Assembly: GCA_965226375.1 (NCBI GenBank)
Contig: CBDDCX010000006.1
Location: forward strand, 64,001 to 128,000
Reading direction: 5' to 3'
Source: Longimicrobiales bacterium
Lineage (GTDB): Bacteria; Gemmatimonadota; Gemmatimonadetes; Longimicrobiales; Gaopeijiaceae
Length of the DNA stretch: 64,000 nt
Made by a program: the position numbers and the translations under genes. Shown here in pieces: positions 2,057 through 53,640 of the stretch. How positions within the stretch are numbered: position 1 is the stretch's first letter; each line of letters opens with the position of its first letter. Below the pieces are notes generated by a model. The model did not search any database. It had not been told where the DNA came from and saw nothing but the letters and a program-made list of their open reading frames with translations.

Positions 2057-3391
2057 GTGGCCCGCGAGACGTTCACGTCCAGGCTGGGTCTCGTGGCCAC
2101 GATGATCGGTGTGGCCGTGGGCCTCGGGAACGTGTGGCGCTTCCCTTACATGGTGGGACGCTTCGGTGGAGCGGCGTTCGTCTTGGTCTACTTGCTCCTG
2201 GCACTCTTCATCGGCATCCCGGCCCTCATGGCCGAGTGGTCCCTGGGGCGTCACACCCGACGCGGAAGCGTCGGTGCGTTCGACCAGGCGGGCCTGCCGG
2301 CCGGCAGAGCCCTGGGCTGGATCTTCTTTTTCGCGGTTACGGCCGCGAACGGCTACTACAGCACGGCCATCGGTTGGGTCTTGTACCACGGCGTGGCAGA
2401 AGCTGCGGCACTTCTTGGTATGCCCTTCGACCCGTCGGGGGTGCTTCCTCCGGAAGAAGGCTTCAGTCCCACTTCGTTGGGCCTTCAGTTGCTCTGCACG
2501 TCGACGGTGGTCCTGGCCTGCGTTGTCGTCCTTGTCAGGGGCCTCCGATCGGGAATCGAGCGAGCCAGCTCGGTGATCACCCCCCTGCTCTTCGTGATCC
2601 TCATCATCCTGGTGGTGCGCGGCCTGACGCTGCCCGGCGCCGATGAAGGGGTCCGCTGGTTCCTTCTGAAGTTCGAGCTCAGCGACCTGAATTCCGCCGT
2701 GGTTCTGGCAGCACTGGGTCAGGTGGTCTTCTCGTTGGCGCTGGGCGGCACCTTTATGGTGGTGTACGGATCATACCTGAATGACAGTGACGCCCTGGGG
2801 TCGAACGCGATTCTCACGGTCCTGGGCGATACGGGAGCCGGGATCCTTGCCGGGTTGGCGATCTTCCCGGCGGTCTTCGCCCTGGGGCTCGAGCCGGGGA
2901 GCGGCCCGGGCCTCATCTTCGCAACGCTACCGCGCGTCTTCGAGGGTATGCCCGCCGGGCACTTCTTCGGCTTGCTCTTCTTTGTCGCGCTCGGGAGTGC
3001 CGCCTACCTCAGCGCGGTAGCCGCGTTCGAGGTGTTGGTGGCCGGCCTGACGGACAACACTGATATGGGCCGAGGCCGGGCCGTCTGGATCGTTGCCGGC
3101 AGTGTGGTGCTGCTGGCGATTCCACCGATGATCAACCTCAAAATCTTCATCCCCTGGGATCTGACGTTCGGGACCGGGTTCCAGACGGTCGGAGCACTCG
3201 CAGCAGCCGTCACCGTCGGATGGGCCTTGAGCCGCGGTGCAGCGCTCAAGCAGTTGACCGTGGACTCTACGGACTCGAAGTCGTTCCAGCTGCTCTACTT
3301 CTGGATCCGATTCGTCATCCCGGGCGCCATCCTGGCCGTGGGTATCTGGTGGTTGCTCACAGAGGTGTTGGGGGTCGTAGGCGGCGTCTAA
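2057..3391 (+). CDS. Sodium-dependent transporter, NSS/SNF family
   Basis: GVAVGLGNVWRFPY, ALGQVVFSLALG, GPGLIFATLP; starts 1 bp after the aminotransferase. Confidence 0.92.
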   Translation: MARETFTSRLGLVATMIGVAVGLGNVWRFPYMVGRFGGAAFVLVYLLLALFIGIPALMAEWSLGRHTRRGSVGAFDQAGLPAGRALGWIFFFAVTAANGYYSTAIGWVLYHGVAEAAALLGMPFDPSGVLPPEEGFSPTSLGLQLLCTSTVVLACVVVLVRGLRSGIERASSVITPLLFVILIILVVRGLTLPGADEGVRWFLLKFELSDLNSAVVLAALGQVVFSLALGGTFMVVYGSYLNDSDALGSNAILTVLGDTGAGILAGLAIFPAVFALGLEPGSGPGLIFATLPRVFEGMPAGHFFGLLFFVALGSAAYLSAVAAFEVLVAGLTDNTDMGRGRAVWIVAGSVVLLAIPPMINLKIFIPWDLTFGTGFQTVGALAAAVTVGWALSRGAALKQLTVDSTDSKSFQLLYFWIRFVIPGAILAVGIWWLLTEVLGVVGGV

Positions 3392-3394: not shown

Positions 3395-4291
3395 TCAGCG
3401 CCCGGCCATCCAGCGGTAGATCGCCCGGACATTCAACGGGAACCATGCGTCGTACTGGGTCCACTCGCTGTATTCAGGCAGACGAATCTCCTCCGCGGCC
3501 CGGTCTTCCGACCACCCTGCGGCGAGAGCCTTCCGGACCTCGGATCGGATCTGATCGTAGTAGAGGATCTGCCGGTGGATGGACCCTCGGTCGCCCGCCG
3601 GCCCGTGCCCGAACACTATGGTCTCGAAGCTGATATCGAGTAGGCTGTTCATGGACTCGAAGAAGTCGGGAAAGATCCAGCCGGGCATCTGTTGATACCC
3701 GACACGGTCGTGGCTCACGAAGTCCACCGCAAACGCGACGTGTGCGTCGGGTACGTACACGACCGTGGAGTTGTCGGTGTGGTTCGCGCCTACGTAGTGG
3801 AGCTCGACGCGACGGCCACCGAGGTCCAGGGACAGATACTCCTGGTAGGTGACGGTCGGCACGGGGAGATCCACGCTGGTGGCCACCGTGAGAGCCCCCA
3901 CGGAGTTGCGATGCGCAATGATGGGCACCGTCTGGCCCATCTCGCTCATGAGCGTGGGCGCCCCCGTGGCATGGTCGGCATCCTGGTGACTGTAGATGAT
4001 CGCCACGAGAGGGGCATCCGGCGCCACCTTCTTGATCTCCCTGGCATACTGCGTGGCCGCCGCCGGAGAAATCGGATCTGCGGCCACAACACCGGCAGGC
4101 GTAACCACAAAGAACCCGTTGTGCTGCTGCCAGCGATACTGATAAACCCCGTCGGCAATACGGGTCGTCTCGTAGTCCGGGGCTTGCGCCTCGGCCACAG
4201 GGGGGGACAGCACAATGCACGGGCCTACCGCCAACGCAGCCAAGAAGATCATTCGTATCGGCGGAAACGAAGCGTAGTTGACTCGTATCAT
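3395..4291 (-). CDS. Secreted MBL-fold metallo-hydrolase
   Basis: Signal peptide; YSHQDADH (variant of HxHxDH), NHTDN, FGHG. Confidence 0.8.
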   Translation of the reverse strand: MIRVNYASFPPIRMIFLAALAVGPCIVLSPPVAEAQAPDYETTRIADGVYQYRWQQHNGFFVVTPAGVVAADPISPAAATQYAREIKKVAPDAPLVAIIYSHQDADHATGAPTLMSEMGQTVPIIAHRNSVGALTVATSVDLPVPTVTYQEYLSLDLGGRRVELHYVGANHTDNSTVVYVPDAHVAFAVDFVSHDRVGYQQMPGWIFPDFFESMNSLLDISFETIVFGHGPAGDRGSIHRQILYYDQIRSEVRKALAAGWSEDRAAEEIRLPEYSEWTQYDAWFPLNVRAIYRWMAGR

Positions 4292-4345
4292 GGAAAACTC
4301 CTGGCCAGCGCTCTTCAGCGGCCCGGCGCGGGCTGAGAGTGTGAC

Positions 4346-5164
4346 CTAGGGAATCGTGGGCAACCGGGCATCGTCGAGCAGGCCGTCTGCCAGGGTCACG
4401 TCCAGGGAAAACACGAGCACGAACCCTCCGACGCCCAAGATGAGGGCGATCATGAACACGGTATAGGAAATCCTGAGAAGGTGGAATTTCTTCTTGAGCA
4501 CCTGACCGAGCCCATACAGATCCCTGACCATGTTGATGTAGAGATGGTCCGGCGTCAGCATCAGATCCCGCATGCCCTCCACGAAGTCGGCCTCGGACAG
4601 GTTCACGAAGTTTCCGAAGAACAGGATGTTGGCGTCGTTGCGATTGATGTCTTCCAGCGTGAGCGCCCGACTGCTGACCCTGGGGCGCGCAGCGAGGACC
4701 GCATAGACGAGGGCGATCAGGCACCCAAGGAGAAGAACGCTCGTGGGCAGGACCAGCAGGGGCAGCCCCGCTATGCGGGGCGCCAGCGCGGCCAAGGTGA
4801 TGGAGATGATCAAGCCGTTCACACTGATCATGATGTTGGCCTTAGCGTCGGCCAGGCCGACCAGGTCCTGATGGACGCGATAGCTGGTCCGGAACATCGT
4901 CTCAACGCCCCGCGACGAACCCAGGGTCACCGGCTTGTCCTTCTTTTTCTTCTTGCCCTTCTTGGCGCCGTCGGCCTCACCGGCGTCCGCACCGCCCTCC
5001 GCGACCGCGGCTACGGTTTCCTGAGCTGCGGCCATCGCCGAGGCCTCGCCGGGGCCCGAGGGCCGAGGCTCATCGCCCTCGCTCGACCCCACGGCGGCGT
5101 CCTCTTCGACGACCTCACCCGCGGCTTCCACAGCGTCTCTCGGTTCGTTCGGATCTACGTCCAT
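4346..5164 (-). CDS. Pycsar effector-like membrane protein (DUF5706/PycTM family) with acidic, poly-Lys N-terminal tail
   Basis: RGVETMFRTSYRVH..LADAKANIMISVN, two TM helices, NILFFGNF, LGQVLKKKFHLLRISY, third TM helix. Confidence 0.8.
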   Translation of the reverse strand: MDVDPNEPRDAVEAAGEVVEEDAAVGSSEGDEPRPSGPGEASAMAAAQETVAAVAEGGADAGEADGAKKGKKKKKDKPVTLGSSRGVETMFRTSYRVHQDLVGLADAKANIMISVNGLIISITLAALAPRIAGLPLLVLPTSVLLLGCLIALVYAVLAARPRVSSRALTLEDINRNDANILFFGNFVNLSEADFVEGMRDLMLTPDHLYINMVRDLYGLGQVLKKKFHLLRISYTVFMIALILGVGGFVLVFSLDVTLADGLLDDARLPTIP

Positions 5165-5180
5165 GCGCTCTCACCTTGGA

Positions 5181-7325
5181 TCAACGGGCCGGAACCTCCC
5201 CCAACAGTTCTTCCAAGTACCGGTACGTGTCAATCTGGCTCCGAACAGAAGGAGCTCCGTCGGCGGTCACGGATCGGTTGCTCTGTTCGGTGTCGATGAT
5301 GCGGGCCTTGGTGTTGTCGGCGAGTTGAAGGCTCAGAACATGTCTCAGCTGGGCCCTAACATCGGGGTCGTAGATCGGAAACGCGACTTCCACGCGCCGG
5401 TTCAGATTTCGGGTCATCCAATCGGCCGAGGCCAGGTACAACACTTCGGCACCGCCGGCGTGGAACAGGTAGATGCGCGAGTGCTCCAGGAATCGGTCGA
5501 CGATGCTGCGGCCCCGGATGTTCGCGCTCAGCTCGTCCACACCCGGCCGGACACAACAAACGCCTCGTATCACCAGTTGGATCGGGACCCCCGCCGCGCT
5601 GGCCTCGTAGAGCCGGTCGATCATGCCGCGATCCTGTAGGCTGTTCATCTTGACGGTCATGCCAGACGGGCGCCCGGCTCGAGCGGCCTCGATCTCGTGG
5701 TCGATGAGCGCGTTGAATCGGTCCCTGAGGTGGAAGGGGGCGACGAGCAGGTGCTCGAAATCGGGTTCTACGTCCTCTCCACCCAGAATCTGGAATACGC
5801 GGTGCACCTCCGTCGTAAGCCCCTCGTCGGCGGTCATCAGGCCGTGATCGGAGTAGACCCGAGCCGTCTTCTCATTGAAGTTGCCCGTGGCTAGAAGCGC
5901 GTAGAGCCGGCTGACGTCACCTTCATTGCGCCGGATGAGCGCCAGTTTGGCGTGCACCTTGATTCCCTGCCGGCCGTATAGGGTGCGCACGCCGGCCCGC
6001 TCCATCCGTTCGGCCCACTCCAGGTTGAGCTCCTCGTCGAAGCGGGCTTGAACCTCGACAAAGGCCGACACGTCCTTGCCGTTCCTGGCTGCCTCGATGA
6101 GGGCCTCGACCACGGCTGAGTCGCGGGCGACCCGATACAGTGAGATCCAGATGGCATCCACCTCGGGATCGGCGGCCGCCTCCTCGAGAAAACGCACGGC
6201 GTAGTCGTACGACTGGTACGGAAAGTGAAGGAGCCGGTCCTTCTCCGAGATGACGTCGAACAGGGTCGGGGCCTGATCCAGCACCGGATGTGCCAGGGGG
6301 TGGAGTGGCGGGTCTTGGTGTTCGGGGACCTCACCCACGGGGAACCCGAATAAGTCGTGCAAGTTGTGGTAACGCCCGCCCAGGATCAGGTCTTCGTCCT
6401 GGAGGCCGAGGGAAGCCTTCAGGCGAGTCACGATGACGTGGGGAGATCGCATGTCGTACAAGAAGCGGATCGGGATGCCGGTATCACGCTTCTTGAGACT
6501 CTTTCTGATGGCCTGTTTGAGTTCCTGGTCGAACTCGTCGTCCAGATAGAGGTCGGCATCCCTGGAAACCTTTACTGCGTAGGCCCCCGCCACCACCTGG
6601 TCGGGAAAGACGCGGGAGAGGTTATGTCGGATGACGTCATCGAGAAACACGACGTACCGCCGCCCGTCCGAAGTCGGGATCGAGATGAATCTCGGGAGGG
6701 GCGGGCTTGGCACCTGCACCAGCCCCAGCTTCGGGCCCGAGGACCCTACGGCGATATTCTGTACCGGCTGCAATTCCACCACCAGATAAACCGTGTGGTC
6801 CTTCAGGAAGGTCGGCTCCCCGTCGTCCTCCAGGTAGGTCGGCTCCAGGAGAGGCTCGACGTGTTCGATGAAGTAGTCCTCGAGCGTCGAGTGATACTCG
6901 TCCGGCACTCCGAGTTCATCGACGAGATCGATTCCCGCATCGACCAGCCCAGGGAGGATATCGTCGCGGAAGGCGCTTCCGAAGCGCTCCTGCTGCGCAA
7001 GCGCAATGTCGTGGATCTCACGCAGCAGCTTCGAGGGATTCAGGCGACGCTTCTTACGCTTTTTCTTGAGCGAGAGAAGGGCCCGGAGCGATGCCACACG
7101 CACACGGAAGAACTCGTCAAGGTTCGACGAGAAGATCGCGAGAAACTTGAGCCGCTCGAAGAGCGGCACCGTGGGGCTCTCGGCCTCCTGAAGCACCCGC
7201 TCGTTGAACGACAACCAGTTCAGTTCCCGGTTTACGTAACGCTCCTCGGTCGAGGAAACGCCCAGCACAGGCTCGCCCTCGCCCTCCTCTTCTGCATAGA
7301 CGTCGGGAATCGAATAAGCTGGCAT
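5181..7325 (-). CDS. ppk1: Polyphosphate kinase 1
   Basis: NRELNWLSFNERVL, SSNLDEFFRVRVA, QARFDEE, KVHAKL, TGNFN, DRFLEHSR, SADWMTRNL. Confidence 0.97.
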   Translation of the reverse strand: MPAYSIPDVYAEEEGEGEPVLGVSSTEERYVNRELNWLSFNERVLQEAESPTVPLFERLKFLAIFSSNLDEFFRVRVASLRALLSLKKKRKKRRLNPSKLLREIHDIALAQQERFGSAFRDDILPGLVDAGIDLVDELGVPDEYHSTLEDYFIEHVEPLLEPTYLEDDGEPTFLKDHTVYLVVELQPVQNIAVGSSGPKLGLVQVPSPPLPRFISIPTSDGRRYVVFLDDVIRHNLSRVFPDQVVAGAYAVKVSRDADLYLDDEFDQELKQAIRKSLKKRDTGIPIRFLYDMRSPHVIVTRLKASLGLQDEDLILGGRYHNLHDLFGFPVGEVPEHQDPPLHPLAHPVLDQAPTLFDVISEKDRLLHFPYQSYDYAVRFLEEAAADPEVDAIWISLYRVARDSAVVEALIEAARNGKDVSAFVEVQARFDEELNLEWAERMERAGVRTLYGRQGIKVHAKLALIRRNEGDVSRLYALLATGNFNEKTARVYSDHGLMTADEGLTTEVHRVFQILGGEDVEPDFEHLLVAPFHLRDRFNALIDHEIEAARAGRPSGMTVKMNSLQDRGMIDRLYEASAAGVPIQLVIRGVCCVRPGVDELSANIRGRSIVDRFLEHSRIYLFHAGGAEVLYLASADWMTRNLNRRVEVAFPIYDPDVRAQLRHVLSLQLADNTKARIIDTEQSNRSVTADGAPSVRSQIDTYRYLEELLGEVPAR

Positions 7326-7329
7326 GGGT

Positions 7330-9902
7330 TCAGAACGAAAATCCGAAGCCCAGGAACAGCCTGGTCGATTCGTCGGACGTCGCCAGGGTCACCGAGATCA
7401 ACGGGGTGTGCTGCCTCAGGAACGAAAACCAGATGCCGCCGCCGTAGGCCCAGTGCCAGAGGTCCGAGTCCTCGCCCTCCAGGTAGACCCGTCCCACGTC
7501 GGTCATGCCGTGCACTCCGAACTGCCCCGGAAGTGCGCGGCTCAGGGCACCCAGCCGTAGTCTCAGCTCGCTCTTCGCGAATACCATGGCATCCCCGGCA
7601 TAACGGTCGTCCGGCGCACCACGAAAATTCTCGACCCCGCCCAGGTACGCAGCGCCCAGATAGGGATACCTCCCCCACACCTTCTTGCCCCCGACCTCGA
7701 TGGCAAGGACCGGTGACATCGGCATGGGCGCCTGCAAGAAGACCTCAGCCGAGCCGGCCAGACTTCCATAGTCCGACGTAAGCTCGGAGAACTCGGGAAA
7801 GTAGGTCGCCTCTACCTGGATCCGGGTGCCTCTCGTCGGGAACCAGCCGTGGTCACGACCATCCCAATCGAGCGCGGTCGTGATACCGAACTGGAAGAGG
7901 TCGGTGAAGCCGTAGGGGTTCTCCTGCGCGATGAGTCTCCCCGTGTTTTTCGACTGCGAGTGTAGGTCCCACTCGAACAGCACCCCCCCGGTCACGGTCA
8001 GGTCGTCGCTGTACAGCCAGCGGAGCTCCGACTCGAAGGTCAGGACCTGGCGATCTACCTCGAAGAAGTCGAGATCGTCGGCGTCGGAGCTGCTGACCGT
8101 CTCGTTTCCAAATCCGAAGAAGCGGTAGCGATCGGCCCCTTGGTACCGCACCCGCGCGCCAGCCTTGAGTCGGCCCACGGGGAACGTCGTGTTGAGATCG
8201 AGGAGTGGGAGGCCCGTCGCCGTCCCGATCCCGGCGGTATAACCGAAGGAACTTCGATATGGATAGTAGCGGAAGCCGAAAGTCTGCCGGCTGGCTCCCA
8301 TTTGGACGTAGGTCCCCTTTCTCCCGCCGACCTCGAAGAGGGGAAAATACGACCAGGCATGACCCCAATCCTGAGGAGGGGCACCATAGCTCTCGACCAC
8401 ATCCGGAGCCTCGTAGTCGGACTCGTAGACCTTGGTGTTCCGGCCCCGAGTAATCTCGTTGTTACCGCGGTCATCGTGGAATCGCACCTGGCCCGAGCCT
8501 GTGGTTTCGTCGATGAGCACGTCCGCGCGGCCGCCCCCGACGATGCGGATGGTCACTCGGCCCGACGCGTCTCCCCGCACGACGGCTCGATCCTGCTCGC
8601 CCAACAGGTAGAGTCGAACATCCTCGGTCTCGGAGCCGAGGAAGGTCCGGTCGTAGAACGCATCTCCCCGAGGCTGCTCGGCGCTGTTCTTCTCCCAAAG
8701 CCGCAGCCTCACCCGGCCTTCCTCCAGCCACTCGACCAGGGCGTACTCCTCTTCGTCGGTCCCGAACACGTCTACGTTGACGACCAGGAGGTCGTAGAAT
8801 TCGCGAGCCTGAACCACCAAGTCATCACGCCTCTGCGTGAGGGCACCCAACAAGTAGTCTCCGGCCACCTCGTAGTACGGCTCGGGGAGGCGGCCTACCG
8901 CATCGGTCAGAACTTCGTCGCTCAACCGACTCTGAAGATCCACGGCAATGGCTTCCCAGGTGCTCCACTCGAGACCGTTGAGGAACCTCCTGTCCAGGGC
9001 CCGGCCCGACCAGGTGATCGCACGAGCCGACGGGTATTCTGCCTCGAAACTCACCAGATGCGGGGCAAGGCGCGGCGCAACTCGGCGGAACCAGCGCAAG
9101 ATGAAACCGTCCAGCTTGGTCAGGGCCCAGTCGCGGTCGCGTGGGACCGGCCTGAAAATGAGGAGTCCTCCCTCCTCGAATCCGGCCCACCGCCACTGAT
9201 CGGGATGCCGGTCCCAATCTCCAACGAACATGTCCATCAGCCGAGCGCGTAAGAAATCCTCGTCGTCTAGGCGGTTGTCCGGATCCTCTTCGAGCCGCTC
9301 GAAGAGGCGGTCGGAGCTGACAACCCTGGTGGAGCCGGCAAAACCCGGCTCCCCGTCCGGTCCCTCGTCAGGACGTTCTTCGATGAATCCAAGGAGTCCC
9401 GCAAATTCCTCCTGGAACTCGCCGAGGCGAGGATCGTCGGGCATGACCACGAGAGTGGGGCCACCACGATCGCGGCCATAGGAAAGAGGGCGGAGATCTG
9501 GTCCTGCTGAGCCCATGCCACGAAGGTCTCCTGGAGCAGCGGGTCCAACCCCCGGGCGGCGTCTTTGTCGATGGAGCGGAAGTTGTAAAGGACGCCGTCC
9601 GCCCCACGCATCCTCAAGGACGATGTCTGTTTTCCTCCGCCACGCCGCACGACGACGAGGCCCCCTGCGTACTCGTCGAGGTCCAGCAACTGAGTCTTTA
9701 CCGGAATCCGCCAGAGCTCCCGCCAGCCGTGACCCATCATCGCGGCGCGCCACGGGTGGGCGTCGTAGCTCATCCGAGGTGTCGCGAAGACCGAGTCGCC
9801 GCCCTGAGGGGTCTGCGCCGCCCCGGGGACAGGCGTCATCAGCACGGCCAGGCCCAGAAATCCGAGCGCTATCCGAGTCCGTGCCGATCGCGGATGGATC
9901 AT
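7330..9902 (-). pseudogene. Omp85/BamA-family barrel with N-terminal lipid/PI-kinase-like domain, frameshifted near 9455
   Basis: N-terminus in ORF 9267..9902 (signal peptide, GGGKQTSSLR, FRSIDK). Remainder in ORF 7330..10071 (DWDRHPDQWRW, PRDRD, barrel with LGG..FRG..RYAG, DVGRV, terminal FGFSF). Confidence 0.75.
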
Positions 9903-10088
9903 CCATGCCTCCGTTGAGATACCGAGGGTTAAGGGGCGGGCCTCCCTGAAACGTGGCGCCGATCGCGTGAGACCGCGTCGATGTAGTAATGACGTCCGAT
10001 GCTACACCCGGCAAGGCGTTCTTGATGCATGCCCCTTCACGGCCGATCTTCCTTCGCTTCGACGACGACAACTCAGAAAGAATACACC

Positions 10089-10649
10089 ATGTTCATCGTT
10101 GCTAACACACGGCTCTGGGCACTCCTCCTCGCACTCCTATGCCTGGCCGTGCCCTATCAGGCGCAATCACAGAGTGACGCCACGGTGGTGTACCTGGTGC
10201 GGCATGCGGAGAAGGTGGACGAATCAAGGGATCCACCCCTCTCGGCCGCGGGTCTGGAACGTGCTGCGCTGTTGGCGGAAATGCTGCGGGATGCCGGAAT
10301 CACACATTTGCACAGCACCGACCTGGAGCGCACCCGAGACACGGCGGCACCCCTTGCGAGACGGTTGAGCCTGGAGGTCCAGTTCTACGATGGGCAGGAT
10401 CTGGCGGGTTTCGCGGAGAGGCTCCGCGTCACGCCCGGACGGCATCTGGTGAGCGGGCACTCGGACACAACGGCGATACTCGTACGACTTCTCGGGGGCG
10501 AGAGCTCGGACATCGCGAGCCCTGAGTACGACCGGCTCTACGTGCTTACGCTCGCGCCCGACGGTGGGGTGAACACAGTCCTGATCCGATTCGGTGCGTC
10601 GGCGGGAGGCGGACACCCGAGAGGCAGGAACCACCCCGCTCCCCCGTAG
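10089..10649 (+). CDS. Secreted histidine phosphatase family (SixA-like) protein
   Basis: Signal peptide; VYLVRHAEK, STDLERTRDTA, VSGHSDT. Confidence 0.85.
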   Translation: MFIVANTRLWALLLALLCLAVPYQAQSQSDATVVYLVRHAEKVDESRDPPLSAAGLERAALLAEMLRDAGITHLHSTDLERTRDTAAPLARRLSLEVQFYDGQDLAGFAERLRVTPGRHLVSGHSDTTAILVRLLGGESSDIASPEYDRLYVLTLAPDGGVNTVLIRFGASAGGGHPRGRNHPAPP

Positions 10650-10671
10650 TGTAGGTTAGTGGGGTGTTGCA

Positions 10672-12318
10672 GTGGTGTCTCGGCCATTCGAGCGCCGAGA
10701 CAACCGACCCTTCACCGAGACACACTTGACCAGCATCGCCTTAACAGAAGCCCGACCCGACGTACTCAAAGCCCTGCGCTCCCTAGGTGGACGAGGCACG
10801 GTCGGCGACGTCGTATCCAATGCCGGACTCCCTCGCGATCAGGTCGAGGATGCGCTCAAAGGCCTCTTGGAAACCCACCAGGGTCACATGGAAGTCTCGG
10901 ACTCGGGAGAGCTCGTCTATCTGTTCGACCGGAAGCTGATCCGGCGAGACCAGGTGTCGACGCTCGAGCGCATGAAGAAGGCGACCAGGACCTTCCTTAC
11001 CGGTGCCTTCAAGGCGTGGATCGTCACCATGCTGGTCGTTTACTTTGTGGTGTTCGTGGCCCTCGTGGTCGCAGCGCTCGTGGCGATGGCGTCGCGAGGC
11101 GGCGACCGGAGAAGCGGTGGGGGAAGTTGGGGGCGGAGCGGCGGTAGCCATGGCGGTCACTTGCATATCCCGAGCTTTTGGCTCTGGTACTATATCTGGA
11201 CTCCGCGGTGGCGGTTGGGACGTCCGTACTACGGCCGCCGCTGGGAAAGGACGCTCGAGAAGGACAATCGTGCTCCGTTCTACAAGAAGGTCTTCGCATT
11301 CGTGTTCGGGCCGGATCGGCCCAGACCGACGCAGAAGCAGCTCGACCGTTCGACGATACGGCTGATCCGCGCACGGAAGGGTGTGCTCACCACGGCGGAG
11401 CTCATGGAGCACAACGCTCTGCCCCGCCCTGAGGCCGAGGAAGAAATCGGTCGCTTGTTGGGATCGTACGCGGGGGAGCCCACCGTTTCACCCGACGGGG
11501 AGCTGGTCTACGCGTTCCCGGAGCTCATGGTGAGTGCACATGGGCCGGTGACCGCAAAGGAGCCCAACCCGGCTTGGCTCCGGTTGGAGTACCCCCTAGA
11601 GCTGACGGGCAATGAGAAGAAGCACGATGCGGTCATCGTAGGGATGAACGGCTTCACCCTGTTGGCCGGGGCCACGGCACCCTGGTTCATCTTTCCGCAA
11701 CTCGGTATCTCGGGAACCGCCGCCTTCGTCGGTCTCGTCTTGGTGCCGGTGGTGTTCAGCGTGCTCTTCTTCGGAGGACCTCTGCTGCGCATGATGGGCG
11801 TGCGCCGTGAGAACAAGGCTCGCAAGGTGCGCAACGTCCGGCGCCTGGTGTTGGGGCTGGTCTACCGCGAGGCTCTGGCCGGGCGAGGGGCGGTGACGGT
11901 GGAGGCAGCCGCCGGCTACGTTCGGGGCCGGATCAAGGACCGGCCGGTCGATCAGTCCGAAGTCGAGACCGCCCTTCACAATCTGGCGGCCGAGTTCAAC
12001 TCCGACGTGACGTCCGGCTCGGACGGGGGGCTGGTGTTCACGTTTCCGGCGATCCGGCGCGAGTTCGTGGCCAGTGAGACCGTCCGCCGGAAGCTCACCC
12101 TCGAGGACCGTAAGCTGGGTGACATCGTGTATTCCAGCGCCGACTCCTCGACGGAGGCCTCCGAGCGAGACCTGGCCGAGTTCGATAGGAAGCTCGCGGC
12201 CGCTGAGATGGATCTGAGCGGTTATCTGCCCTCGCCCGACCGGGTGGGTTTCGAGGACGACTACGAGATCGTGGCGTTCGATGAAGAATTGCGGAGCCGT
12301 AGCGTCAGACGAGGCTAG
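10672..12318 (+). CDS. Hypothetical membrane protein with repeated wHTH-like segments
   Basis: 548-aa ORF with TM segments and three similar motifs (GELVYLF, GELVYAFP, GGLVFTFP). Confidence 0.65.
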   Translation: MVSRPFERRDNRPFTETHLTSIALTEARPDVLKALRSLGGRGTVGDVVSNAGLPRDQVEDALKGLLETHQGHMEVSDSGELVYLFDRKLIRRDQVSTLERMKKATRTFLTGAFKAWIVTMLVVYFVVFVALVVAALVAMASRGGDRRSGGGSWGRSGGSHGGHLHIPSFWLWYYIWTPRWRLGRPYYGRRWERTLEKDNRAPFYKKVFAFVFGPDRPRPTQKQLDRSTIRLIRARKGVLTTAELMEHNALPRPEAEEEIGRLLGSYAGEPTVSPDGELVYAFPELMVSAHGPVTAKEPNPAWLRLEYPLELTGNEKKHDAVIVGMNGFTLLAGATAPWFIFPQLGISGTAAFVGLVLVPVVFSVLFFGGPLLRMMGVRRENKARKVRNVRRLVLGLVYREALAGRGAVTVEAAAGYVRGRIKDRPVDQSEVETALHNLAAEFNSDVTSGSDGGLVFTFPAIRREFVASETVRRKLTLEDRKLGDIVYSSADSSTEASERDLAEFDRKLAAAEMDLSGYLPSPDRVGFEDDYEIVAFDEELRSRSVRRG

Positions 12319-26614: not shown

Positions 26615-27911
26615 TGCCAACGTACGTGAGACACGGAGCACGCAAAGAATTAGAGTAGGGCGAAGGCAGAGAAAACGAACATGTTGGGACTGCGAGAGAG
26701 AATGGCAGAGAATGGTAGTGCCCCTGGAACCGGGGAGGCCAAGCGAAGCGCGGCAGCTCCTGCGGACCCGGAGGTAGTAGATAGGCCGCTACGGCGGCGG
26801 TTCAGTCCGTCGTACAAGCTGCGGATCGTCGAAGAAGCGGACCGGTGCACCGAGCCCGGCGAGGTGGGTCAAGTCCTGCGGCGAGAGGGCCTGTACTCGT
26901 CGCACCTGACGACGTGGCGCAAGGCGGCGCATAGCGGGTCGCTGAAGGCCCTGTCGAAGAAACGCGGCCGCAAGCCGGAGCGAAATCCGCTGGATGAGAA
27001 GGTACGCAAGCTGGAGCGGCGAAACGCACGGCTCGGGAATGAGCTCAGGAAGGCACACCTGATCATCGACGTGCAGGGAAAAGTTGCGGGGCTGCTGGGG
27101 ATAAGCCTCGACGACGGGACAAACTCTTGAAGGCGGCCGATGAGCTGGCTAAGCACGTCGGTGTAAAACCGGCGTGCGCGGCCCTCGAGGTCTCCCGATC
27201 GACGTTGTACCGTCGTCGAGGCCCATCAACCGGGCAACAGCAGCCCCGCCCGACGCCCGCCCGGGCATTGAGCGAGACGGAACGAGGCGAGGTCTTCGAC
27301 ACGCTGTGTTCGGAGCGGTTCGTGGACCGCTCACCCGCCGAGGTGGTGGCCACGCTGCTCGACGAAGAGGTCTACCTGTGCAGCGAACGCACGATGTATC
27401 GTGTTCTGGCCTCCGAGGTGCCGGTTCAGGAACGCCGGGCGCAGCGCACCCATCCCGAGTACAAGAAGCCCGAGTTGATGGCCACGGCGCCGAACCAGGT
27501 GTGGTCCTGGGATATCACGCGGCTGCTCGGGCCGAAGAAGTGGAGCTATTACTACCTCTACGTCATCATGGACATCTACAGCCGCTACGTCGTGGGCTGG
27601 ATGGTGGCGGACCGGGAGAACTCGGCCCTGGCCGGCCGGTTGATCCAGCAGAGCTGCCTGAAGCATGGCGTCCAGCCCCGGGTCCTGACCCTGCACTCGG
27701 ATCGGGGAGCTCCAATGACGAGCCAATGCACCGCTCAACTTCTCGCTGACCTCGGCGTGACCCGCTCGTTGAGCCGGCCTCAGGTGTCGGATGACAACCC
27801 GTTTTCCGAGGCTCAGTTCAAAACCTTGAAGTACCATCCCTCGTTTCCCGGACGGTTCGGGGATCAGGGCCAAGCCAAGACGTTCTGTCGATCGTTCTTC
27901 CGCTGGTACAA
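26615..27911 (+). mobile_element. IS3-family element copy 1, truncated in orfB
   Basis: IRL TGCCAACGTACGTGAGACA; orfA 26681..27130, orfB from 27127; matches copy 2 up to CGCTGGTACAA at 27911. Confidence 0.92.
26681..27130 (+). CDS. IS3 family transposase OrfA
   Basis: RRRFSPSYKLRIVEEADRC..LRREGLYSSHL HTH followed by a leucine zipper. Confidence 0.9.
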   Translation: MLGLRERMAENGSAPGTGEAKRSAAAPADPEVVDRPLRRRFSPSYKLRIVEEADRCTEPGEVGQVLRREGLYSSHLTTWRKAAHSGSLKALSKKRGRKPERNPLDEKVRKLERRNARLGNELRKAHLIIDVQGKVAGLLGISLDDGTNS

Positions 27912-28530
27912 CGGCAAGCTCGCTCGGCGTGTAGATGTAGGTCAGCTCACCATCGACGTGGAGATCAACCGAGGGAGCGTCGAACACATCAATCTGGGTG
28001 AAGGGAGGTACGCCCTCCTCTCCAGCCCACACGAAGCTGTCGGGTGTATCGCCGATCTCGAAGGTGATCGAAGCAGATGGAGCTTCCGTAGCATCGGGAC
28101 GAGCGATATTCGGTAGGATCGCTTCGACCGTTCGAACCGCTGCAAGCCGTTTGAGAATGCGTACATAACCGGTCTTCCCGGCACCATTCTCGCCGTAAAG
28201 AAGCGTCATGCGCGGGTGAAAAAGGATGTCCTGGTCCGCTGCGAGGGCGTTCACGTTGGCGACGTCGGAGAGTGCCGTTAGCCGAAGCGCCTTCTCAGGG
28301 TCTCCGGAATTGCCGTCGTGTTGGATCGCGGGCACGGATACGGGCTCACCTTCAGTGTCGACAAGCTCCTTTTCTCTTAGAAGAAGCTCGTAGAACGCCC
28401 TTATGACGTCCTCGCTCAGACCACGACGTGCATCGAGCACCGCAGCGACGAGCGAACGAACCCAGTGGTCGCGGGAGTTGGCCCAGTCGACTAGCAGGGT
28501 GATGCCAGATGTCTACTCATCATCAGTCAT
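27912..28530 (-). pseudogene. N-terminal fragment of SMC/RecF-like AAA ATPase (defence-island type)
   Basis: NVNAL, Walker A LYGENGAGKTGYVRILK, DVFD; premature TAG at 28513-28515; truncated by IS3 at 27911. Confidence 0.7.
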
Positions 28531-29985: not shown

Positions 29986-32900
29986 TCAAGGCAGAACCGC
30001 CTGATCACAGGCCAATCTGTACACCGTATCGGACATCCAGCGCTTGAAGTCGCGGTTGTCTCGAAACTGCTTGAACAACTCCATGTCGTCCTTCATCAGC
30101 GCTGTCATGACTCGTTGTAGAGCCTTGCCGTGCTCGATGCGCACGTTTTGCTCGTCGGAGTTCGTCCGGGCGTTCTTGAAGGCGGTGTCGTCCGCTACCC
30201 GCGACGGAATGGTCTCGGTAATGAGTCTCCTTACGCGGTCGCCGTCCTGCCAGTCGATATCGCCGAATAGGTGGTTGAAGTCCTTGAGGATGTTCGAGAG
30301 CCAGTCCAGCTCAGGATCGGGCCAGTGGCCTCCATCGCCGGTCCCGGCTGGGTCGATCTCACCGTCTTCATCCGATATGACGATCTTCTGCACCGCCAGC
30401 CTCTCGACCCGGTAACTGTCCATGTCGATCGCGTCGAGGATCCCCTTGGAGAGGTCATCTTCCACGGGCGCTGGCAGCTTCGGGACCAGGAAATTCAGGA
30501 AGATCGAGCGCTTCTCCCAGCCGGCGTTCGTGAACGGCAGGATGCAGGAGAGAAAGGCGTATGTGCGCACGAACGCCTTGGCCTTGCCCTTGAAGTCCAC
30601 CTGCCGGTCCTCATCCAGCTCCTGAAGATAGACGGCGACGCAGGCGTCGAGGATCGGGTCGAGCTCGTCGCGATCGGCGTCGCCGAGGTAGCGCTGCACG
30701 AAGTCGTGCGGTAGTAGTCGGTGAATGCGTAACGGATCGTCTCGGCATCGTTCAGGAAATCGAGCACGAAAACATCGTGCTTCTTTGGATGCGCGCGATT
30801 AAGGCGAGACAGTGTCTGCACCGCCTTGATTCCGGAAAGCGTCTTGTCCACGTACATCGTGTGGAGCAGCGGTTCGTCGTAGCCGGTCTGGAACTTGTCC
30901 GCGCAGATCAGGAACCGGTAGGGATCTTCCCGGAATTTGGCGGCGGTCTGGCCGTCCGGGAAGCCATTCAGTGATGTCTCGGTAACATTCACGCCACCAT
31001 ATTCGCGTTCGCCGGAGAAGGCCACGATGGCGTGGTACGGGCTCTTCCGCTCCTGCAGGTAGTCGCGGATGGCGTGGAAGTACTGGATCGCACGCTGAAC
31101 GCCGTTGGTGACCACCATCGCGCGCGCCTGGCCCCCGATCTTGTGCTGGGCGAGGACCTGCTCGTGGAAGTGGTCGACCATGATCTCGGCCTTGAGACGG
31201 AGCGCGTGCTCGTGGCCCTCGACGAAGCGGCGCAGCTTCTTCTTCGCCTTCGTGGCGTCGAACTCCGGGTCGTCCTCTATGGTCTTGGCGAGCCGGTAGT
31301 AGCTCTTGACCGGCGTGTAGTGCGCCAGCACGTCCAGGATGAACCCCTCCTGGATTGCCTGCTTCATCGTGTAGCTGTGGAACGCGTAGTGCCGGACCGA
31401 GCCATCGGGCTGCGGGTCCGGCTGGCCGAAGATCTCGAGTGTCTTGTTCTTGGGCGTCGCCGTGAAGGCGAAGTAGCTGGCGTTGGGCAGCAGCTTCCTC
31501 GACTCCATTAGGCGGTTGATCCGATCCTCGAAGGTCTCTTCCTCGACCTCTTGGCCAGTCTCGGAGAGCACCTGCGACATGGCCGCGCTGGTGCGACCGC
31601 CCTGGCTCGAGTGGGCCTCGTCAATGATGATCGCGAAGCGCCGTCTGCGTTGCTCGCTTCCGATCTCGTCCAGGATGAAGGGGAACTTCTGGACCGTCGA
31701 GATGATGATCTTCTTGCCGGACTCCAAGAACCTGCGAAGGTCGCCCGACCGGTTCGCGTGGCCCACCGTTGCGCTGACCTGCGCGTACTGCCGGATCGTG
31801 TCACGGATCTGCCGGTCGAGTATGCGCCGATCCGTGACCACAATGATCGAGTCGAAGAGCGGTACGCCATCCTTCATGAGTCCGACCAGCTGGTGGGCGA
31901 GCCAGGCGATGGAGTAGCTCTTGCCGCTGCCGGCCGAGTGCTGGATCAGGTAGCGTTCGCCCACACCATTACCTGGGGCATCGGCTAGCAACCGGCGCAC
32001 GGCATCGATCTGGTGGTAGCGCGGCCAGATCTGCTTACGCTTCTTTCGGCCGGTCTTCTCGTCCTTCTCCTCCACGACCTGGGCGTAGTTCTCCAAGATG
32101 TTCGTCAGGCTCTCTCGGGTCAGTACCTCGCGCCACAGGTAGTCGGTCTTAATCCCGTTCGGGTTCGGCGGATTGCCCGCGCCGTCGTTCCAACCCCGGT
32201 TGAACGGCAGGAACCAGGACTTCTTGCCAGCGAGATGTGTACAGAAGCGCACCTCGTTGTCGTCCACAGCGAAGTGGGCCACGCAGCGGCCGAGCTCGAA
32301 CAGCTTCTCGCGCGGATTGCGGTCCCTCTTGTATTGCTCCTCCGCATCGCCCACCGTCTGCTTCGTGAGGCGGTTCTTGAGCTCGAAGGTGAGAACCGGC
32401 AGGCCGTTGATGAAGAGCACGATGTCGAGTGAGCGCTGGGTCTCGTCTCGGCTGTAGCGGAGCTGCCGGACGGCGGTGAACCGGTTCTGCTCGAAGCGTT
32501 CGCGCGCCTGCGGGTTCGCGGCCGAGGGCGTGCCGTAGAACAGAGCTAGGTCGTGCGCGTCGTGCCTGGCGCCATGACGGAGCACCTCGATGGTGCCGCG
32601 CTTGGAGATCTCGCCCTGCAGCCGGGCGAGGAACTTGCGCTGCGTCGGACCGTCCGCGTCCAGAGCCAGTGCTTCGGCCGCCTCCGACTGGGTATTCTGT
32701 AGGAAGGCTGCAAGCTGAACCCGGTCGACACAGAACTCGCGGTCGTAGTCATGAGGACTGCCGCAGCTCCAGCCCACGCCGCCGTAGCCGGGATGAGCCG
32801 CGCCCTCTGTACCGTTCCCCCCTGGGTCGCACGGATCGCCAGTGAGCGCCGTGCAAATCAGCCGTTCAAGGCCACGCTCGGATGTATCTGTGATCGCCAT
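29986..32900 (-). pseudogene. hsdR: Type I restriction subunit R with internal deletion and frameshift near 30702
   Basis: FELKN, QHSAGSGKS, IIIDEAHSSQ, FAFTATPK, FQTGYDEP, VQTLSRLNR; C-terminus is in another frame (ORF 29986..30699). Confidence 0.9.
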
Positions 32901-32912
32901 AGACGCTCGCCG

Positions 32913-33230
32913 TCAGATCGGCACCTCCGTGTACTCTCCCGGTTCCATCCGATCGACAGCGGCCCGAATGTCGGCAACACGGCGTTGGATGCGCGGCCAT
33001 GACGCGGCCAGCAATACCACAATCGCTAGCCGTCTCCCAGATAGGTTCTGTTGATGACGGAGATGCTGGTCCGTCGTTACCAGCAGCTGGTACCCATCCT
33101 CCTCCGCCCGGTCGAGCAACGCACCGTTGTCCAGGCCCGACCAGCCGCGTCCGAAAACAGTATCCACGTCATGCCCGGCCAGATCCCTGCCCAGCGGCGC
33201 CGGCACCCCTTGATCGAACAGTATTCTCAA
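32913..33230 (-). CDS. DUF5615/VapC45-like PIN toxin
   Basis: MRILFDQGVP, GWSGLDNGALL, LVTTDQHLRHQQNL. Confidence 0.85.
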   Translation of the reverse strand: MRILFDQGVPAPLGRDLAGHDVDTVFGRGWSGLDNGALLDRAEEDGYQLLVTTDQHLRHQQNLSGRRLAIVVLLAASWPRIQRRVADIRAAVDRMEPGEYTEVPI

Positions 33231-33451
33231 GCCACCGAGTCCTTGAGATTCCGGGTCTCGTGGTCGAGAACGCTCTCGACCTGCCGACGCTCCACGCCGG
33301 GAAACCAGCTTAGGAACTGGTCGATCGTGGCACCGTCCCGGAGGTTCTCAAAGAGTGAAGCCACGGGCACTCGCGTGCCCCGAAACACCCAGGTTCCGCT
33401 AACTCTTGCCGGATCCCGCTCCACAGCGGGACACGTTTTCCAGCCACTCAT
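33227..33451 (-). CDS. DUF433 antitoxin
   Basis: SGTWVFRGTRVPVASLFENLRDGATIDQFLSWFPGV. Confidence 0.9.
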   Translation of the reverse strand: MSGWKTCPAVERDPARVSGTWVFRGTRVPVASLFENLRDGATIDQFLSWFPGVERRQVESVLDHETRNLKDSVA

Positions 33452-34983
33452 CGGGCCACCTCCTTCACGGTCTCGAGTTCCTCAAGAACCGAATCCATGT
33501 CAGTATCGACCGGATCGTCCACGTCGTCTCCGGCCAACGGATCCACCTTCGGCAGGGCAGCCGCAGCATCGCGCACGTCGAGCTTGCCGGTGACGACGTC
33601 GGCGACCAGGCGAGTGCGATACTCCTTGAGAAAATGGATTTGACGCTCCAGCTGACATACCTCCTGATCGATAGTGACTACGTTGCTATCGTTGAAATCA
33701 GCGATCAGAACTTGTTCTTCTTGTGGAGGACGAGGTGTTGGCATCCTCTTGAAGTCCTCCCAGTATAGCCGGTTACGATCTTTGACGATGCCGCGGGGGT
33801 ACTTGTCAATCTCGGTCATATACGCGCTCGTGCGAAAAAGAGCGTTAAAGTACTGTGGATTCGTGCCTACTAGTGGCTTTGCAACAACATACGCAGGGCT
33901 GACTAATCCATCCACTGGAGTTACTCCGACTGCTCCCTGCCACATTCGCATCATATTGTAAGCGATGTCCCCCTCGACGGCCCGCTTGTACTTGTTACGA
34001 TCTGACATGACTTGCTTTCGGTCTGGATCTTCCAAGTCTCGCACACGAATACCTGTCCTTAAAGAAATCTCAAGCAAGCCAAAATCGGCAGTTCAGCGAA
34101 TCCGACTTCATTGCGCTGAACAAAGAGCCGAGTCCCATTTCGAACCACATCCCAATGCTCCGGCACTTGTCCCAGCCACTCGACTCCAGCCTCCACGCCC
34201 CCGACATATCCGAGTAGCCTTGTAGGCCCGGTAGCACACAAACCCTTCCGGCCAGCGCAGACCCTCCACGTACTCCAGGCATGCCGGCTGGCCGGTGCGG
34301 ACATCGACCTGGCCCGTGACGGCTTGGTGGATGATGGCCTGCTTCTGCTCCTCCAGAAGCGCGATCAACTTCTCCTTGGCTCGGATGTAGCGCTGTATCC
34401 TGCGGTCGACGTAATCAAGGAAGCGAACTATGGCGGTCTGTTCGGGCAAGGGTGGAAGAGGTAACCAAACGGACTGGATGGCCGCGTGCGAGAGCCCATA
34501 CCTAGTCACACCGTTGGCTTGAACATGAAACTGACACCCAATGCTTCTACTTTGGAGTGCACGTAATAGGTATCCTCCATTCAGGCAGGTGCCCAACGGG
34601 CGGAGCAGGGCCAGGTGATAGCCGCTGACCAGATCATCAGCAGATTCAACCACAAGTGCTGGGACTCCGATGTCATCCCAAGCTTCGGAGTCCTTTGTTA
34701 TGAGAACGTCGCCAGGGGTCAAGCGGAATCGTGCGATCTCGTCTGCGGTCGCGGTTGCTCGCATGAATAGCATGCTGGGACTTATGTGATCGTTCTTGTA
34801 GACATCCACATAATTGCACAGGCGAACGGGATACTCACCCTCCTTGGTGTGCTTATCGATGTTGCTGATACGCATTTCGGCAACGTTCTTGAGCCGCTGT
34901 ATTTCCCAATGTTCTGGCACCTCTCCTAGCCACTCCAGTCCGGAATCCTTCCTAGCAGGATAGGGCTTCAGAACATGGGTCAT
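33448..34983 (-). pseudogene. hsdS: Type I restriction specificity subunit, frameshifted near 34070-34290
   Basis: KDSGLEWLGEVPEHW, PPLPEQTAIVRFLD, LLEEQKQAIIHQAVTG, LKEYRTRLVADVVTGKLDVR; IS1595 slivers inserted. Confidence 0.88.
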
Positions 34984-36270
34984 GCGCCGGTCTCCCCATC
35001 ACCCATTTGTTTCTCGAACGCCTGGCGCACGAGGCCCATCACATAGGACAGCTCATCTACCTCGGTCATGTCCACCTCTGCATCCCCATTGCCCCAGCGG
35101 CCGATGCCGGTGACGTCCTTGGCGAACCCCCTCGGGTCATTGAGCTCGTGGAAGGGGAGGTTCAGACTAAGGCGTAGACAGCTCTTTTGCGGTACCACGT
35201 CGACGAAGTTGGTCTCCGCCTTGTAGGCGACGTAGAGCTTGAGGACCTCCTCGGTGACGCAAGGATCGAGGGCCACGACCTCCTTTCGGAACGCATCGAA
35301 GAGCGATCGCATGGGACTGCCGTCGGCGAGGTTCGGGTGGTCAGCGAGGGTGTAACTAGCCGGGCGCTCTGTCTTCTGCCGATACGTTTCCAATACCTCA
35401 GCAGGCAACTCGGGCTGCGCCCACACTTTCGTAGCCTGCTCGGCAAGCCGCGTCGCGCGGGTTTGGATCGCGGCTTCGTCCCAGGTCGCGAGAGACCTCA
35501 GATCCTCGTTCAACCGCAGCGGGCTCTGCCGGAAGCCGCCCGACATGTCGCGCTTCTCGGCGAAGGGCCGATCGCTATATTCTGCGTTGTAGCCGGTTAG
35601 CGTCAGGTTACCAAGCGTGTGCAACCAAGTCGCTTGCACCCGTTGCCACTCCGAGCCGAGTGCGTTCCGCCATTTCGCGGAGAGGTTTTCGTTCTGCGGC
35701 ATGATGTGCTCGATGGTGTACTCGTCTACGTGCACTCGCTCCTTGCGGCCGTGGTTCTCGAGACGACGTAGCCAGTAGCTGCGACGCGGAAAATTATAGA
35801 GGTCTCGAATTTTGAGCTCACGCTTGAATTCCTCATCGTCCGGGAACCGACGGTAGGAGCGTATAGTCAGCAAGTGCGCCTCGATGCTCTCAAGGTAGCG
35901 ATCCTTCCTGACGAAGCGTCCGAAGGTGGCAAACGTCTTGTTCAGGGAGTTGGTAGGAATACCGCACACCGCTCGTCGAAATACGTACGCCTCGACGAGC
36001 CGCACAGCACCAGCGAGGTCATCCTTGTCTAGAGGGCCCTCGACGTAATCGTGATACAGCTCGAGTAAGAACGGGAAGGCCACGTCAACCTTGAGATCAC
36101 GCAGGTCGCGAAAAGCCAACGCCAACTGTTTGTCGGGCTCCTGGTCAAGCGCCATCGCGCAGTAGTGGCGGGCGTAAGCGTGGACCTCGGCAACAAGGGC
36201 CTCTACGCCGGCCGCCGCCACCTCCGGGGAGTTAGCGTGCGCCTTGAACGCTTCGTAGACGGCCCGGATC
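34980..36270 (-). pseudogene. GmrSD-like DUF262/DUF1524 HNH protein with DUF5655 C-terminus, 5'-truncated by IS3
   Basis: TIEHIMPQN, LGNLTLTGYNAEYSDRPF, KLYVAYKAETNFVDVVPQ, GRWGNGD. Confidence 0.8.
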
Positions 36271-36309
36271 GGAACCTGTCAACGACAATGGGACACTCTA
36301 CGGGATTAA

Positions 36310-37763: not shown

Positions 37764-37836
37764 GTTCGTTTTCTCTGCCTTCGCCCTACTCTAATTCTTT
37801 GCGTGCTCCGTGTCTCACGTACGTTGGCAGAGAGGG

Positions 37837-39862: not shown

Positions 39863-39910
39863 GTCAGGTTCTCCTGGGCTAGGTCTATGGATTACTGATC
39901 TAAGGCCTGG

Positions 39911-40801: not shown

Positions 40802-41029
40802 GGTTGTGGATAAGCTCGTGTGTGGGGCCGATAAGGGTGGCCTCGCGCGACACAGACGAAGACTACGATAGGTCGCCGTCCGGATGCCGGCACACCTACG
40901 TTACAGCAATAGGCATACAGCACAAAGCCGGGGAGTCCATTCCCAGGACTCACCGAGGGAGAGACGCTGAGGGAGCGGATCGACCGCGAGAGACAACTAC
41001 CCGCCGATTCGGGCGTACTAGTGGCGATC

Positions 41030-50274: not shown

Positions 50275-50278
50275 GGCC

Positions 50279-52069: not shown

Positions 52070-52087
52070 GGGGCTGTCTCGAGCCGC

Positions 52088-53615: not shown

Positions 53616-53640
53616 GAGAGCCGAGTTCTCCGGCCTTTCC

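Follow-up and report, generated by a model that had tools for sequence, protein, structure and literature searches.

What brings together, on one bacterial chromosome, the genes for an outer-membrane protein, a polyphosphate (polyP) kinase and a relative of an anti-phage effector, and what might their products do in common? The question was raised by a 64,000-nucleotide stretch of the 4.2 Mb genome of a Longimicrobiales bacterium (G000:C6:64001-128000), called the window below. Four co-oriented genes on its minus strand encode an Omp85-type protein (ending at 7330), the polyP kinase PPK1, a PF18967 (PycTM) protein and a hydrolase of the metallo-beta-lactamase (MBL) fold. The original prediction, made from the sequence alone, had placed them, together with a divergent phosphatase, in a non-defence unit spanning the cell envelope. 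The gene order and the gaps of 4 bp (7326-7329), 16 bp (5165-5180) and 54 bp (4292-4345) were confirmed by the coordinates of the open reading frames (ORFs), and scans with hidden Markov models (HMMs) matched PF18967, PPK1 and Omp85. The idea of a non-defence envelope-spanning unit was strengthened, as the module is conserved far beyond close relatives and its PycTM-like protein stands apart from the cyclase-paired PycTM. The conserved core consists of the Omp85 protein, which carries a predicted kinase domain, and the PycTM-like protein. We propose, with a probability of roughly 45%, that it is an envelope phosphorylation module in which the barrel-anchored kinase would be fed by a donor from the inner-membrane protein, a dedicated PPK1 being the likely source of that donor. 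In the window the module is present as a damaged copy, two genes of the original five are mere passengers, and its mode of action is a prediction.

The kinase-like domain, claimed earlier to sit on the barrel, was supported by its fold and by an invariant motif. A structure model built on the domain of the orthologue from a same-genus genome (G001; pLDDT 90) matched CotH (5jda) with Z 14.8, a root-mean-square deviation (rmsd) of 4.2 and 255 aligned residues, tied with PI4KIIalpha (Z 14.7) and followed by CtkA (Z 13.0) and HipA (Z 11.7); the top structural matches were atypical kinases throughout. The motif D[WF]DRHxxQW was kept in 37 of 37 full-length domains of homologues, and the residues Q47, R64, K68, D198, H200, Q203, D223 and D225 are invariant. 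The domains also have a Gly-rich loop and, after the motif, a DxD that never varies. No Pfam family covers the domain, and Pfam CotH (PF08757) matched neither of the two window pieces nor the intact homologues. The hhalign comparison with four CotH sequences gave 0.8%, and atlas searches with the kinase region returned only unnamed Bacteroidota clusters. Altogether, the model leads us to predict a CotH/PI4K-like kinase, which by the usual topology of Omp85 proteins likely faces the periplasm. The barrel at the C-terminus was recognized by PF01103 (24.2 bits, cut-off 24) and by NF047779 (E 2.9e-21, below the cut-off), with stronger matches in homologues than in the window gene.

Barrel and kinase-like domain are thus real, as predicted, but the gene is not intact in this strain. 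It starts with the ATG at 9902, followed by a signal-peptide-like N-terminus, so that the 913-codon ORF at 7330-10071 is wrong in approximately its first 205 codons. Near 9460 the frame changes, 37 bases of G001 being missing in this strain. The G001 orthologue is intact (868 amino acids, aa), and intact relatives of 865-876 aa are 74-85% identical to the two window pieces. The break splits the kinase domain, leaving the Gly-rich loop and the beta3 motif in the first piece and the catalytic loop in the second, which has no signal peptide. A mere assembly error was ruled out, as contigs of two sequencing runs span the site without the 37 bases: that of run X1, which may be the source sample (5211-11000, no deviating letters), and that of run X3 from another study (5211-9594, five deviating letters). 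Contigs of depth 3-4 from runs X7 and X9 carry the 37 bases. The deletion is real in some populations, and because it shifts the frame of the kinase gene, a unit working in this strain is unsupported. Other irregularities were seen within the genus, near 9330 in L013 and near 9320 and 13240 in L014: ppk1 is split over two frames in each of the two same-genus genomes, the sites being different, and the start of the Omp85 gene is disturbed in G002, which reflects either assembly errors or independent decay.

The cross-phylum neighbourhood analysis demonstrated that the barrel-kinase and the PycTM-like gene are linked in distant lineages. The loci of the PycTM clade were examined in the best 80 of at least 564 confirmed GTDB loci, the set behind all counts per 80 below. 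The partners there were the kinase-Omp85 gene (30 loci), an SdiA-regulated propeller (24), SixA (23), a calcineurin-like phosphoesterase (22), a class III cyclase (15), ppk1 (12), an RNase Z-like MBL (6), PAP2 (6) and a large GAF protein (5); in the subset of 44 loci whose flanks reached 8 kb or more on each side, 24 had the kinase and 8 had ppk1. In 201 Bacteroidota genomes, an even sample of the phylum of G281, the kinase was found in 82, the PycTM clade in 79 (after a weak match in G323, which proved cyclase-paired, had been dropped) and both in 69, where 32 would be expected if they were independent, although related genomes are not, which makes the Fisher p too strong. The two genes lay within 10 kb in 51 of these 69 genomes and within 25 kb in 58. 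Among 251 Gemmatimonadota genomes, 85 have the kinase and 3 the PycTM clade, in each of the three within approximately 5 kb of the kinase.

Other small membrane proteins take the same place. Of the 85 Gemmatimonadota kinase genomes, 40 have a DUF4956 gene no more than 10 kb from the kinase; the DUF4956 gene of the present genome lies 400 kb away from the locus. The partners in a second set of 36 kinase loci, hand-picked for long contigs, were DUF4956 (15 loci), a phosphoesterase (14), the propeller (12), ppk1 (9) and a TLC-type nucleotide transporter (5); genes of this TLC/Npt1 type flank the barrel-kinase in the Gemmatimonadota loci L110, L120, L127, L128 and L135. PycTM-like, DUF4956 and TLC-type genes hence share a membrane slot beside the same kinase. 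In Bacteroidota and Rhodothermales homologues a PF00149 phosphoesterase, absent from the window gene, is fused to the N-terminus of the kinase-Omp85 protein. Where the barrel-kinase is missing or doubled, Pfam CotH, the phosphate porin O/P and PAP2 were found together in four loci. Beside the PycTM-like gene of two loci without the barrel-kinase (L165 and L172) lie genes of a secreted, barrel-less family that has CotH-like motifs, whose members are 31-39% identical to each other and whose profile match was not significant. Judged from these gene contents, a small inner-membrane protein, an extracytoplasmic kinase fold and phosphatases appear to form a recurring rule.

Several neighbours deserve mention in their own right. 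An unannotated 358-aa secreted protein of the barrel-less family follows a DUF4956 gene in the present genome (G000:C6:473029-475263, L199). The SdiA-regulated propeller, among the commonest partners, does not occur at the window locus and has its own copy at C8:2037774. The GAF protein (765-825 aa), with a strongly conserved, uncharacterised C-terminal domain, adjoins the PycTM-like gene in several lineages (L022, L036, L040, L043, L048, L148, L149, L153, L157 and L177); a 'YeeD' lead for this C-terminus, at 32% of members, was not used.

The wealth of phosphatases around these genes (calcineurin-like, SixA and PAP2, with the SdiA-regulated propeller) also raised the possibility of phosphate scavenging and storage, in which the barrel and porins would admit phosphate esters, phosphatases would free inorganic phosphate, the membrane protein would import it and PPK1 would store it, the kinase fold being a ligand-binding or regulatory domain. 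The four loci with phosphate porin O/P go along with such a role, as does an Omp85 protein that is reported to act as an ion channel (PMC12548389). We consider it improbable, as the kinase keeps its catalytic residues unchanged from phylum to phylum and neither pst, phoU nor pit was seen among the recurring neighbour families identified (some clusters being unannotated).

The PycTM-like protein itself contains the PF18967 domain (96 bits, cut-off 27) and has three hydrophobic segments, the first helix being long. It was matched by the PADLOC models for PycTM (best E 6e-18), which makes an orphan or variant anti-phage system conceivable, with a PycTM-like pore that would kill infected cells when triggered by a distant cyclase or by polyP. 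Its homology to the cyclase-paired PycTM is firm (hhalign 97%, E 4e-11, with seven cyclase-paired effectors). For the phylogeny against true PycTM, eight cyclase-paired effectors (three from sampled genomes, five from plasmids) were placed in an unrooted tree of 63 rows, with long branches and a bootstrap not fully settled. All eight fell on one side of a branch (support 99/82) and the 55 others, including the window protein, on the opposite side. In this tree the protein, although homologous to the Pycsar effectors, thus falls outside the cyclase-paired group. The clade is, moreover, mostly single-copy in 79 of the 201 Bacteroidota genomes, with stable synteny, plasmid matches were limited to three records, and PADLOC gave no match for the other five proteins. 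Even with the patchy distribution in Gemmatimonadota (3 of 251) and the nine cyclase domains of the genome in its favour, a defence function is, in our judgement, very improbable. Three Pycsar-like pairs of a short cyclase and a small transmembrane (TM) effector were encountered at L167 (G323), L139 (G142) and L173 (G032), the first adjoining genes that on inspection resemble type I restriction-modification genes.

Fusions of the PycTM-like domain were frequent. Among the best 120 longer homologues, 51 were class III cyclase-PycTM fusions; in others the fusion partner is a complete PPK1 (P0081 and P0294), an HD domain or a beta-propeller. Truncated PPK1 parts in P0001 and P0002 resemble frameshift artefacts. 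In P0094 and P0111 the domain is followed by a C-terminal propeller with a weak phytase-like match, which from the sequence would lie in the periplasm.

A second feature of the protein is the lysine patch before helix 1, with 8 Lys in 20 residues and a run of 5. By Lys density it belonged to the top 7 of 3,523 crude ORFs, and of these it alone had a run of 5. Runs of at least 4 Lys precede helix 1 in 22 of 31 members lacking the HD domain. As far as the accessible part of a published study goes, such patches bind polyP in some proteins and not in others (PMC12077175). Neither Foldseek with the PycTM model (at E<=0.001) nor a sequence search found a match in the PDB. In a fold comparison set beforehand, three channel subunits of VTC were among the top 21 matches of the model, with Z 8.7-9.2 being within the generic helical-bundle range; for 9umg_C, Z was 9.2 with an rmsd of 2.9 over 100 of 103 residues, and generic bundles scored alike. 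The related protein PucTM forms a cylindrical hexamer, according to the accessible part of its description (10.64898/2026.08.12.744502), and by analogy the PycTM-like protein probably oligomerises as well.

The third member, PPK1, matched TIGR03705 with 734 bits (cut-off 466) and has four PP_kinase domains, the catalytic His and the invariant H434 and H591 (numbering of the trimmed alignment). In a FastTree tree of 20 rows it grouped with 14 other PycTM-linked PPK1s and two more from kinase loci; the records in which these module loci lie belong to Rhodothermota, Ignavibacteria and Bacteroidota. It stood apart from the second PPK1 of its genome, whose gene adjoins SixA on contig C8, and from two other Gemmatimonadota PPK1s (support 100). 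As the tree included no housekeeping Bacteroidota PPK1, no donor lineage is claimed for the window gene. Within Bacteroidota, ppk1 was present in 77 of the 79 genomes with the PycTM clade, and in 8 of the 79 no more than 3 kb separated it from the PycTM-like gene; these were 8 of the 20 genomes with two copies of ppk1 versus 0 of the 57 with one. In 12 of the 57 single-copy genomes it was 16-19 kb away, apparently in one syntenic block. P0081 and P0294 are full-length PPK1-PycTM fusions. The link thus looks specific but optional, ppk1 joining a minority of loci as an extra paralog. Of the polyP handling foreseen for the unit, a minority partnership, with a dedicated second ppk1 and rare fusions, was upheld, but not a general one across loci. 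Prediction of a complex between PPK1 and the PycTM-like protein gave a score of 0.00 with both alignments (A5 and A4), which speaks neither for nor against binding.

The effector had been described as cyclase-less, which is correct for the window locus but not for the family. No class III cyclase is encoded within the window, and the nearest of the nine domains in the genome ends approximately 450 bp before the window start, 4.8 kb from the effector gene. This 584-aa protein of the cyclase-TolB-TPR type is 34% identical to the module-type cyclase domain, and its gene lies next to an insertion sequence (IS). The adjacent stand-alone PycC-type cyclase by which Pycsar is recognized is absent here. 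Among the 15 of 80 loci with a cyclase, eight have one specific cyclase-TolB-TPR clade (motif QxYGDG), adjacent in four lineages (Gemmatimonadota, Balneolota, Ignavibacteria and Saprospiraceae-type records) and fused in Balneolaceae; a second clade was found in 2 of 80. The orthologue of the linked cyclase in the present genome lies at C5:155059-157034 and is itself in two frames. Loci in which the cyclase-TolB-TPR clade was noted are L018, L020, L044-L046, L050, L057, L059, L093, L097, L103 and L143-L145. In this clade Q and G, which are unusual there, occupy the sites that normally choose ATP or GTP; judged by the sequence, the product might be a non-canonical cyclic nucleotide.

The recurrence of one non-PycC cyclase clade, together with its fusions, makes cyclic-nucleotide gating a rival to be taken seriously. 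A housekeeping module of this kind would use the PycTM-like protein as a gated inner-membrane pore or receptor, the cyclase as the signal source, the fused HD domain or an RNase Z-like MBL protein to clear the signal, the GAF protein as a sensor and the barrel-kinase as the envelope output, ppk1 being a co-regulated extra. The firm homology to cyclase-paired PycTM, the two linked cyclase clades, the cyclase-PycTM fusions, the HD domain with its weak match to PDEase_I (E 8e-4), and the RNase Z-like MBL and GAF genes near the PycTM-like gene all suit it. It accords less well with the 65 of 80 loci that lack a cyclase in the flank covered, with the 30 kinase loci, where a cyclase occurred in 9 versus a phosphatase or ppk1 in 28 (the fused phosphoesterase counted), and with the orthologue of the linked cyclase in this genome, which is in two frames on another contig; it also leaves the DUF4956 and TLC transporters beside the same kinase unexplained. 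We regard it as rather unlikely on its own, although donor supply and cyclic-nucleotide gating would be compatible if export of the donor were controlled by a cyclic nucleotide.

In the phosphorylation module that we prefer, the Omp85 barrel would carry the predicted CotH/PI4K-like kinase, likely facing the periplasm. The PycTM-related inner-membrane protein would likely supply or gate the phosphoryl donor, polyP or ATP, and a dedicated PPK1, where present, would make or regenerate it. Neighbouring phosphatases (a fused or separate calcineurin-like enzyme, SixA, PAP2) would reverse the reaction, and an envelope protein, lipid or polysaccharide might be the substrate. We infer the periplasmic topology, the catalytic activity, the oligomeric pore and the donor export. 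ATP is generally regarded as absent from the periplasm, and the module offers a way to ask how CotH-type enzymes of bacteria that do not sporulate obtain their phosphoryl donor outside the cytoplasm. In its most specific version, which we hold to be unlikely, proteins or lipids of the periplasm in the FCB group would be phosphorylated by the Omp85-anchored CotH-like kinase with polyP that the dedicated PPK1 makes and that a hexameric pore from the family of the Pycsar effectors lets through. If a polyP-fed kinase were true, the immune pore family would have a housekeeping branch working like the polyP channel of yeast VTC.

Several observations weigh against phosphorylation with an exported donor. 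The kinase is broken in this strain while ppk1 and the PycTM-like gene are intact; the domain retains apparently ordinary nucleotide-binding elements, and we know of no kinase of this fold that uses polyP. PolyP is no input common to all loci, since ppk1 is adjacent in just 12 loci of 80 and 8 genomes of 79. Many Saprospiraceae-type loci with HD-PycTM genes lack the kinase within the flank (the single genome of this kind that was checked has it at another place). A PycTM-like gene does not exclude a DUF4956 gene, as L052 and L057 have both, and many kinase loci have neither. Signalling is a better fit to the HD domain of most Bacteroidota members and to the cyclases. A Lys run of at least 4 occurs in just 3 of 21 HD-fused members, and such runs may merely be cytoplasmic positive charge. 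Finally, comparison with eight DUF202 sequences in shallow alignments detected no sequence homology to DUF202/VTC subunits (hhalign 0.6%).

The two remaining genes did not prove to be parts of the system, as had been claimed. The MBL hydrolase and the histidine phosphatase, whose signal-peptide-like N-terminus and divergent orientation were verified (a His_Phos_1 gene ending at 10649), flank the unit in only the two same-genus genomes among the loci of nine relatives. A window-type MBL was found in 0 of 80 and a histidine phosphatase of the window type in 1 of 80 distant loci, and both were rejected as core parts, being limited to the genus. The hydrolase has the motif HxDxDH, and its best NCBIfam match was a SoxH-related hydrolase, below the cut-off. 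Apyc1-like phosphodiesterases of cyclic nucleotides are cytoplasmic RNase Z-like MBL proteins with the motif HxHxDH; by this definition, the window protein may differ from them, given its signal-peptide-like N-terminus and its motif. In two other genomes (G010 and G016) an SNF-family transporter gene directly follows the PycTM-like gene; in the window such a gene (2057-3391) converges on the module, as it does in G010 and G016, and in L084 it sits upstream of the PycTM-like gene.

Features of the locus, with positions in the window
Feature	Position	Strand	Basis
Kinase-Omp85 gene, in this strain a pseudogene through the frameshift: signal peptide, predicted CotH/PI4K-like kinase domain, beta-rich linker and Omp85-type barrel	7330..9902	-	
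Predicted atypical kinase domain, split by the break	8755..9767	-	HMM matches, motif, model of G001 orthologue
Site of 37-bp frame-shifting deletion, polymorphic among populations	9453..9461	-	
ppk1, module-type paralog	5181..7325	-	TIGR03705, tree
PycTM-like three-TM inner-membrane protein; acidic unconserved N-terminus, lysine patch, no HD domain	4346..5164	-	
Lysine patch of 10 residues, 8 of them Lys, just before helix 1; possible polyP-binding segment	4934..4963	-	
MBL-fold hydrolase, signal-peptide-like N-terminus; genus-limited passenger	3395..4291	-	
Divergent histidine phosphatase, signal-peptide-like N-terminus; outside the conserved core	10089..10649	+	His_Phos_1; likely start 10089, longest ORF from 10029

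A scan of the locus for promoters and terminators gave no signal above chance. At intergenic position 9974 all four sequencing runs compared have an extra base, and the assembly is probably one base short. Farther along the window, 49054-58301 and 39184-41019 have copies 98.8-99.8% identical at C6:43621-55637 (inverted) and C6:56098-57933, which represent a recent duplication or an assembly artefact. An IS of approximately 1.57 kb, with at least 17 near-identical copies among those listed, occupies 36263-37839 and 27127-28116, and fragments resembling, on inspection, type I restriction-modification genes lie at 29986-36221.

In the literature covered, from which subscription journals were largely absent and supplements left unopened, no paper was found that treats the module or the kinase domain of its Omp85 proteins, nor one on DUF5706, on PycTM with polyP or on DUF4956 with VTC; the HD fusion may have been mentioned in comparative genomics of the pJV1-spdB3 family. 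The module would place a candidate kinase, phosphatase, membrane conduit and polyP source in one operon, in approximately 40% of the sampled Bacteroidota, and many 'Pycsar system effector' annotations in this phylum are probably not defence genes. The 3-TM effectors of Pycsar and Pucsar (PycTM and PucTM, pJV1-spdB3 family) share the homologous PF18967 domain (the hhalign match given above), but the clade described here is separate and far more conserved, has no adjacent PycC, is fused to HD, cyclase, PPK1 or beta-propeller domains and is stably linked to the barrel-kinase on the chromosome. The eukaryotic VTC complex (Vtc4/Vtc3/Vtc1; 10.1101/2023.01.27.525886) resembles the proposed module in coupling a polyP polymerase to 3-TM subunits whose basic residues lie at the mouth of TM1 on the cytoplasmic side, whereas no sequence homology to it was detected, the fold scores were not above those of generic bundles and PPK1 is unrelated to Vtc4. 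With the atypical kinases CotH, PI4KIIalpha, CtkA, HipA and Fam20, the window-type kinase has the fold and the catalytic-loop motif in common; it is 10-14% identical to them and, unlike them, anchored to an outer-membrane barrel.

Two further known sets are comparable. Bacteroidota barrel-kinases match the 'Metallo' subfamily of Omp85 proteins (PMC4104836, Heinz and Lithgow 2014) because of the added N-terminal PF00149, these homologues being PF00149-Omp85 fusions; the window gene lacks PF00149 and keeps the kinase. In the available text of that paper PF00149 is taken as a protease domain and the words 'kinase' and 'polyphosphate' do not occur; the predicted kinase adds a previously unreported catalytic domain to a known subfamily. 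The Gram-positive pel loci, according to the accessible parts of two reports, combine a secreted CotH, a polyP polymerase (VTC domain) and DUF4956 (10.1101/768473; PMC12345266), and deletion of the CotH or the MgtC-ACT membrane gene changes the Pel output (PMC12345266). Both there and here a secreted CotH-fold kinase, a polyP maker and a small inner-membrane protein would form one unit, and DUF4956 is also the usual partner of the barrel-kinase in Gemmatimonadota. The present locus differs in that an Omp85 barrel is joined to the kinase, which has no Pfam CotH match, PPK1 takes the place of VTC, the membrane protein is a PycTM homologue, and neither pel genes nor DUF4956 are present. By this analogy, the module appears to repeat the layout of CotH, polyP polymerase and membrane protein with other parts.

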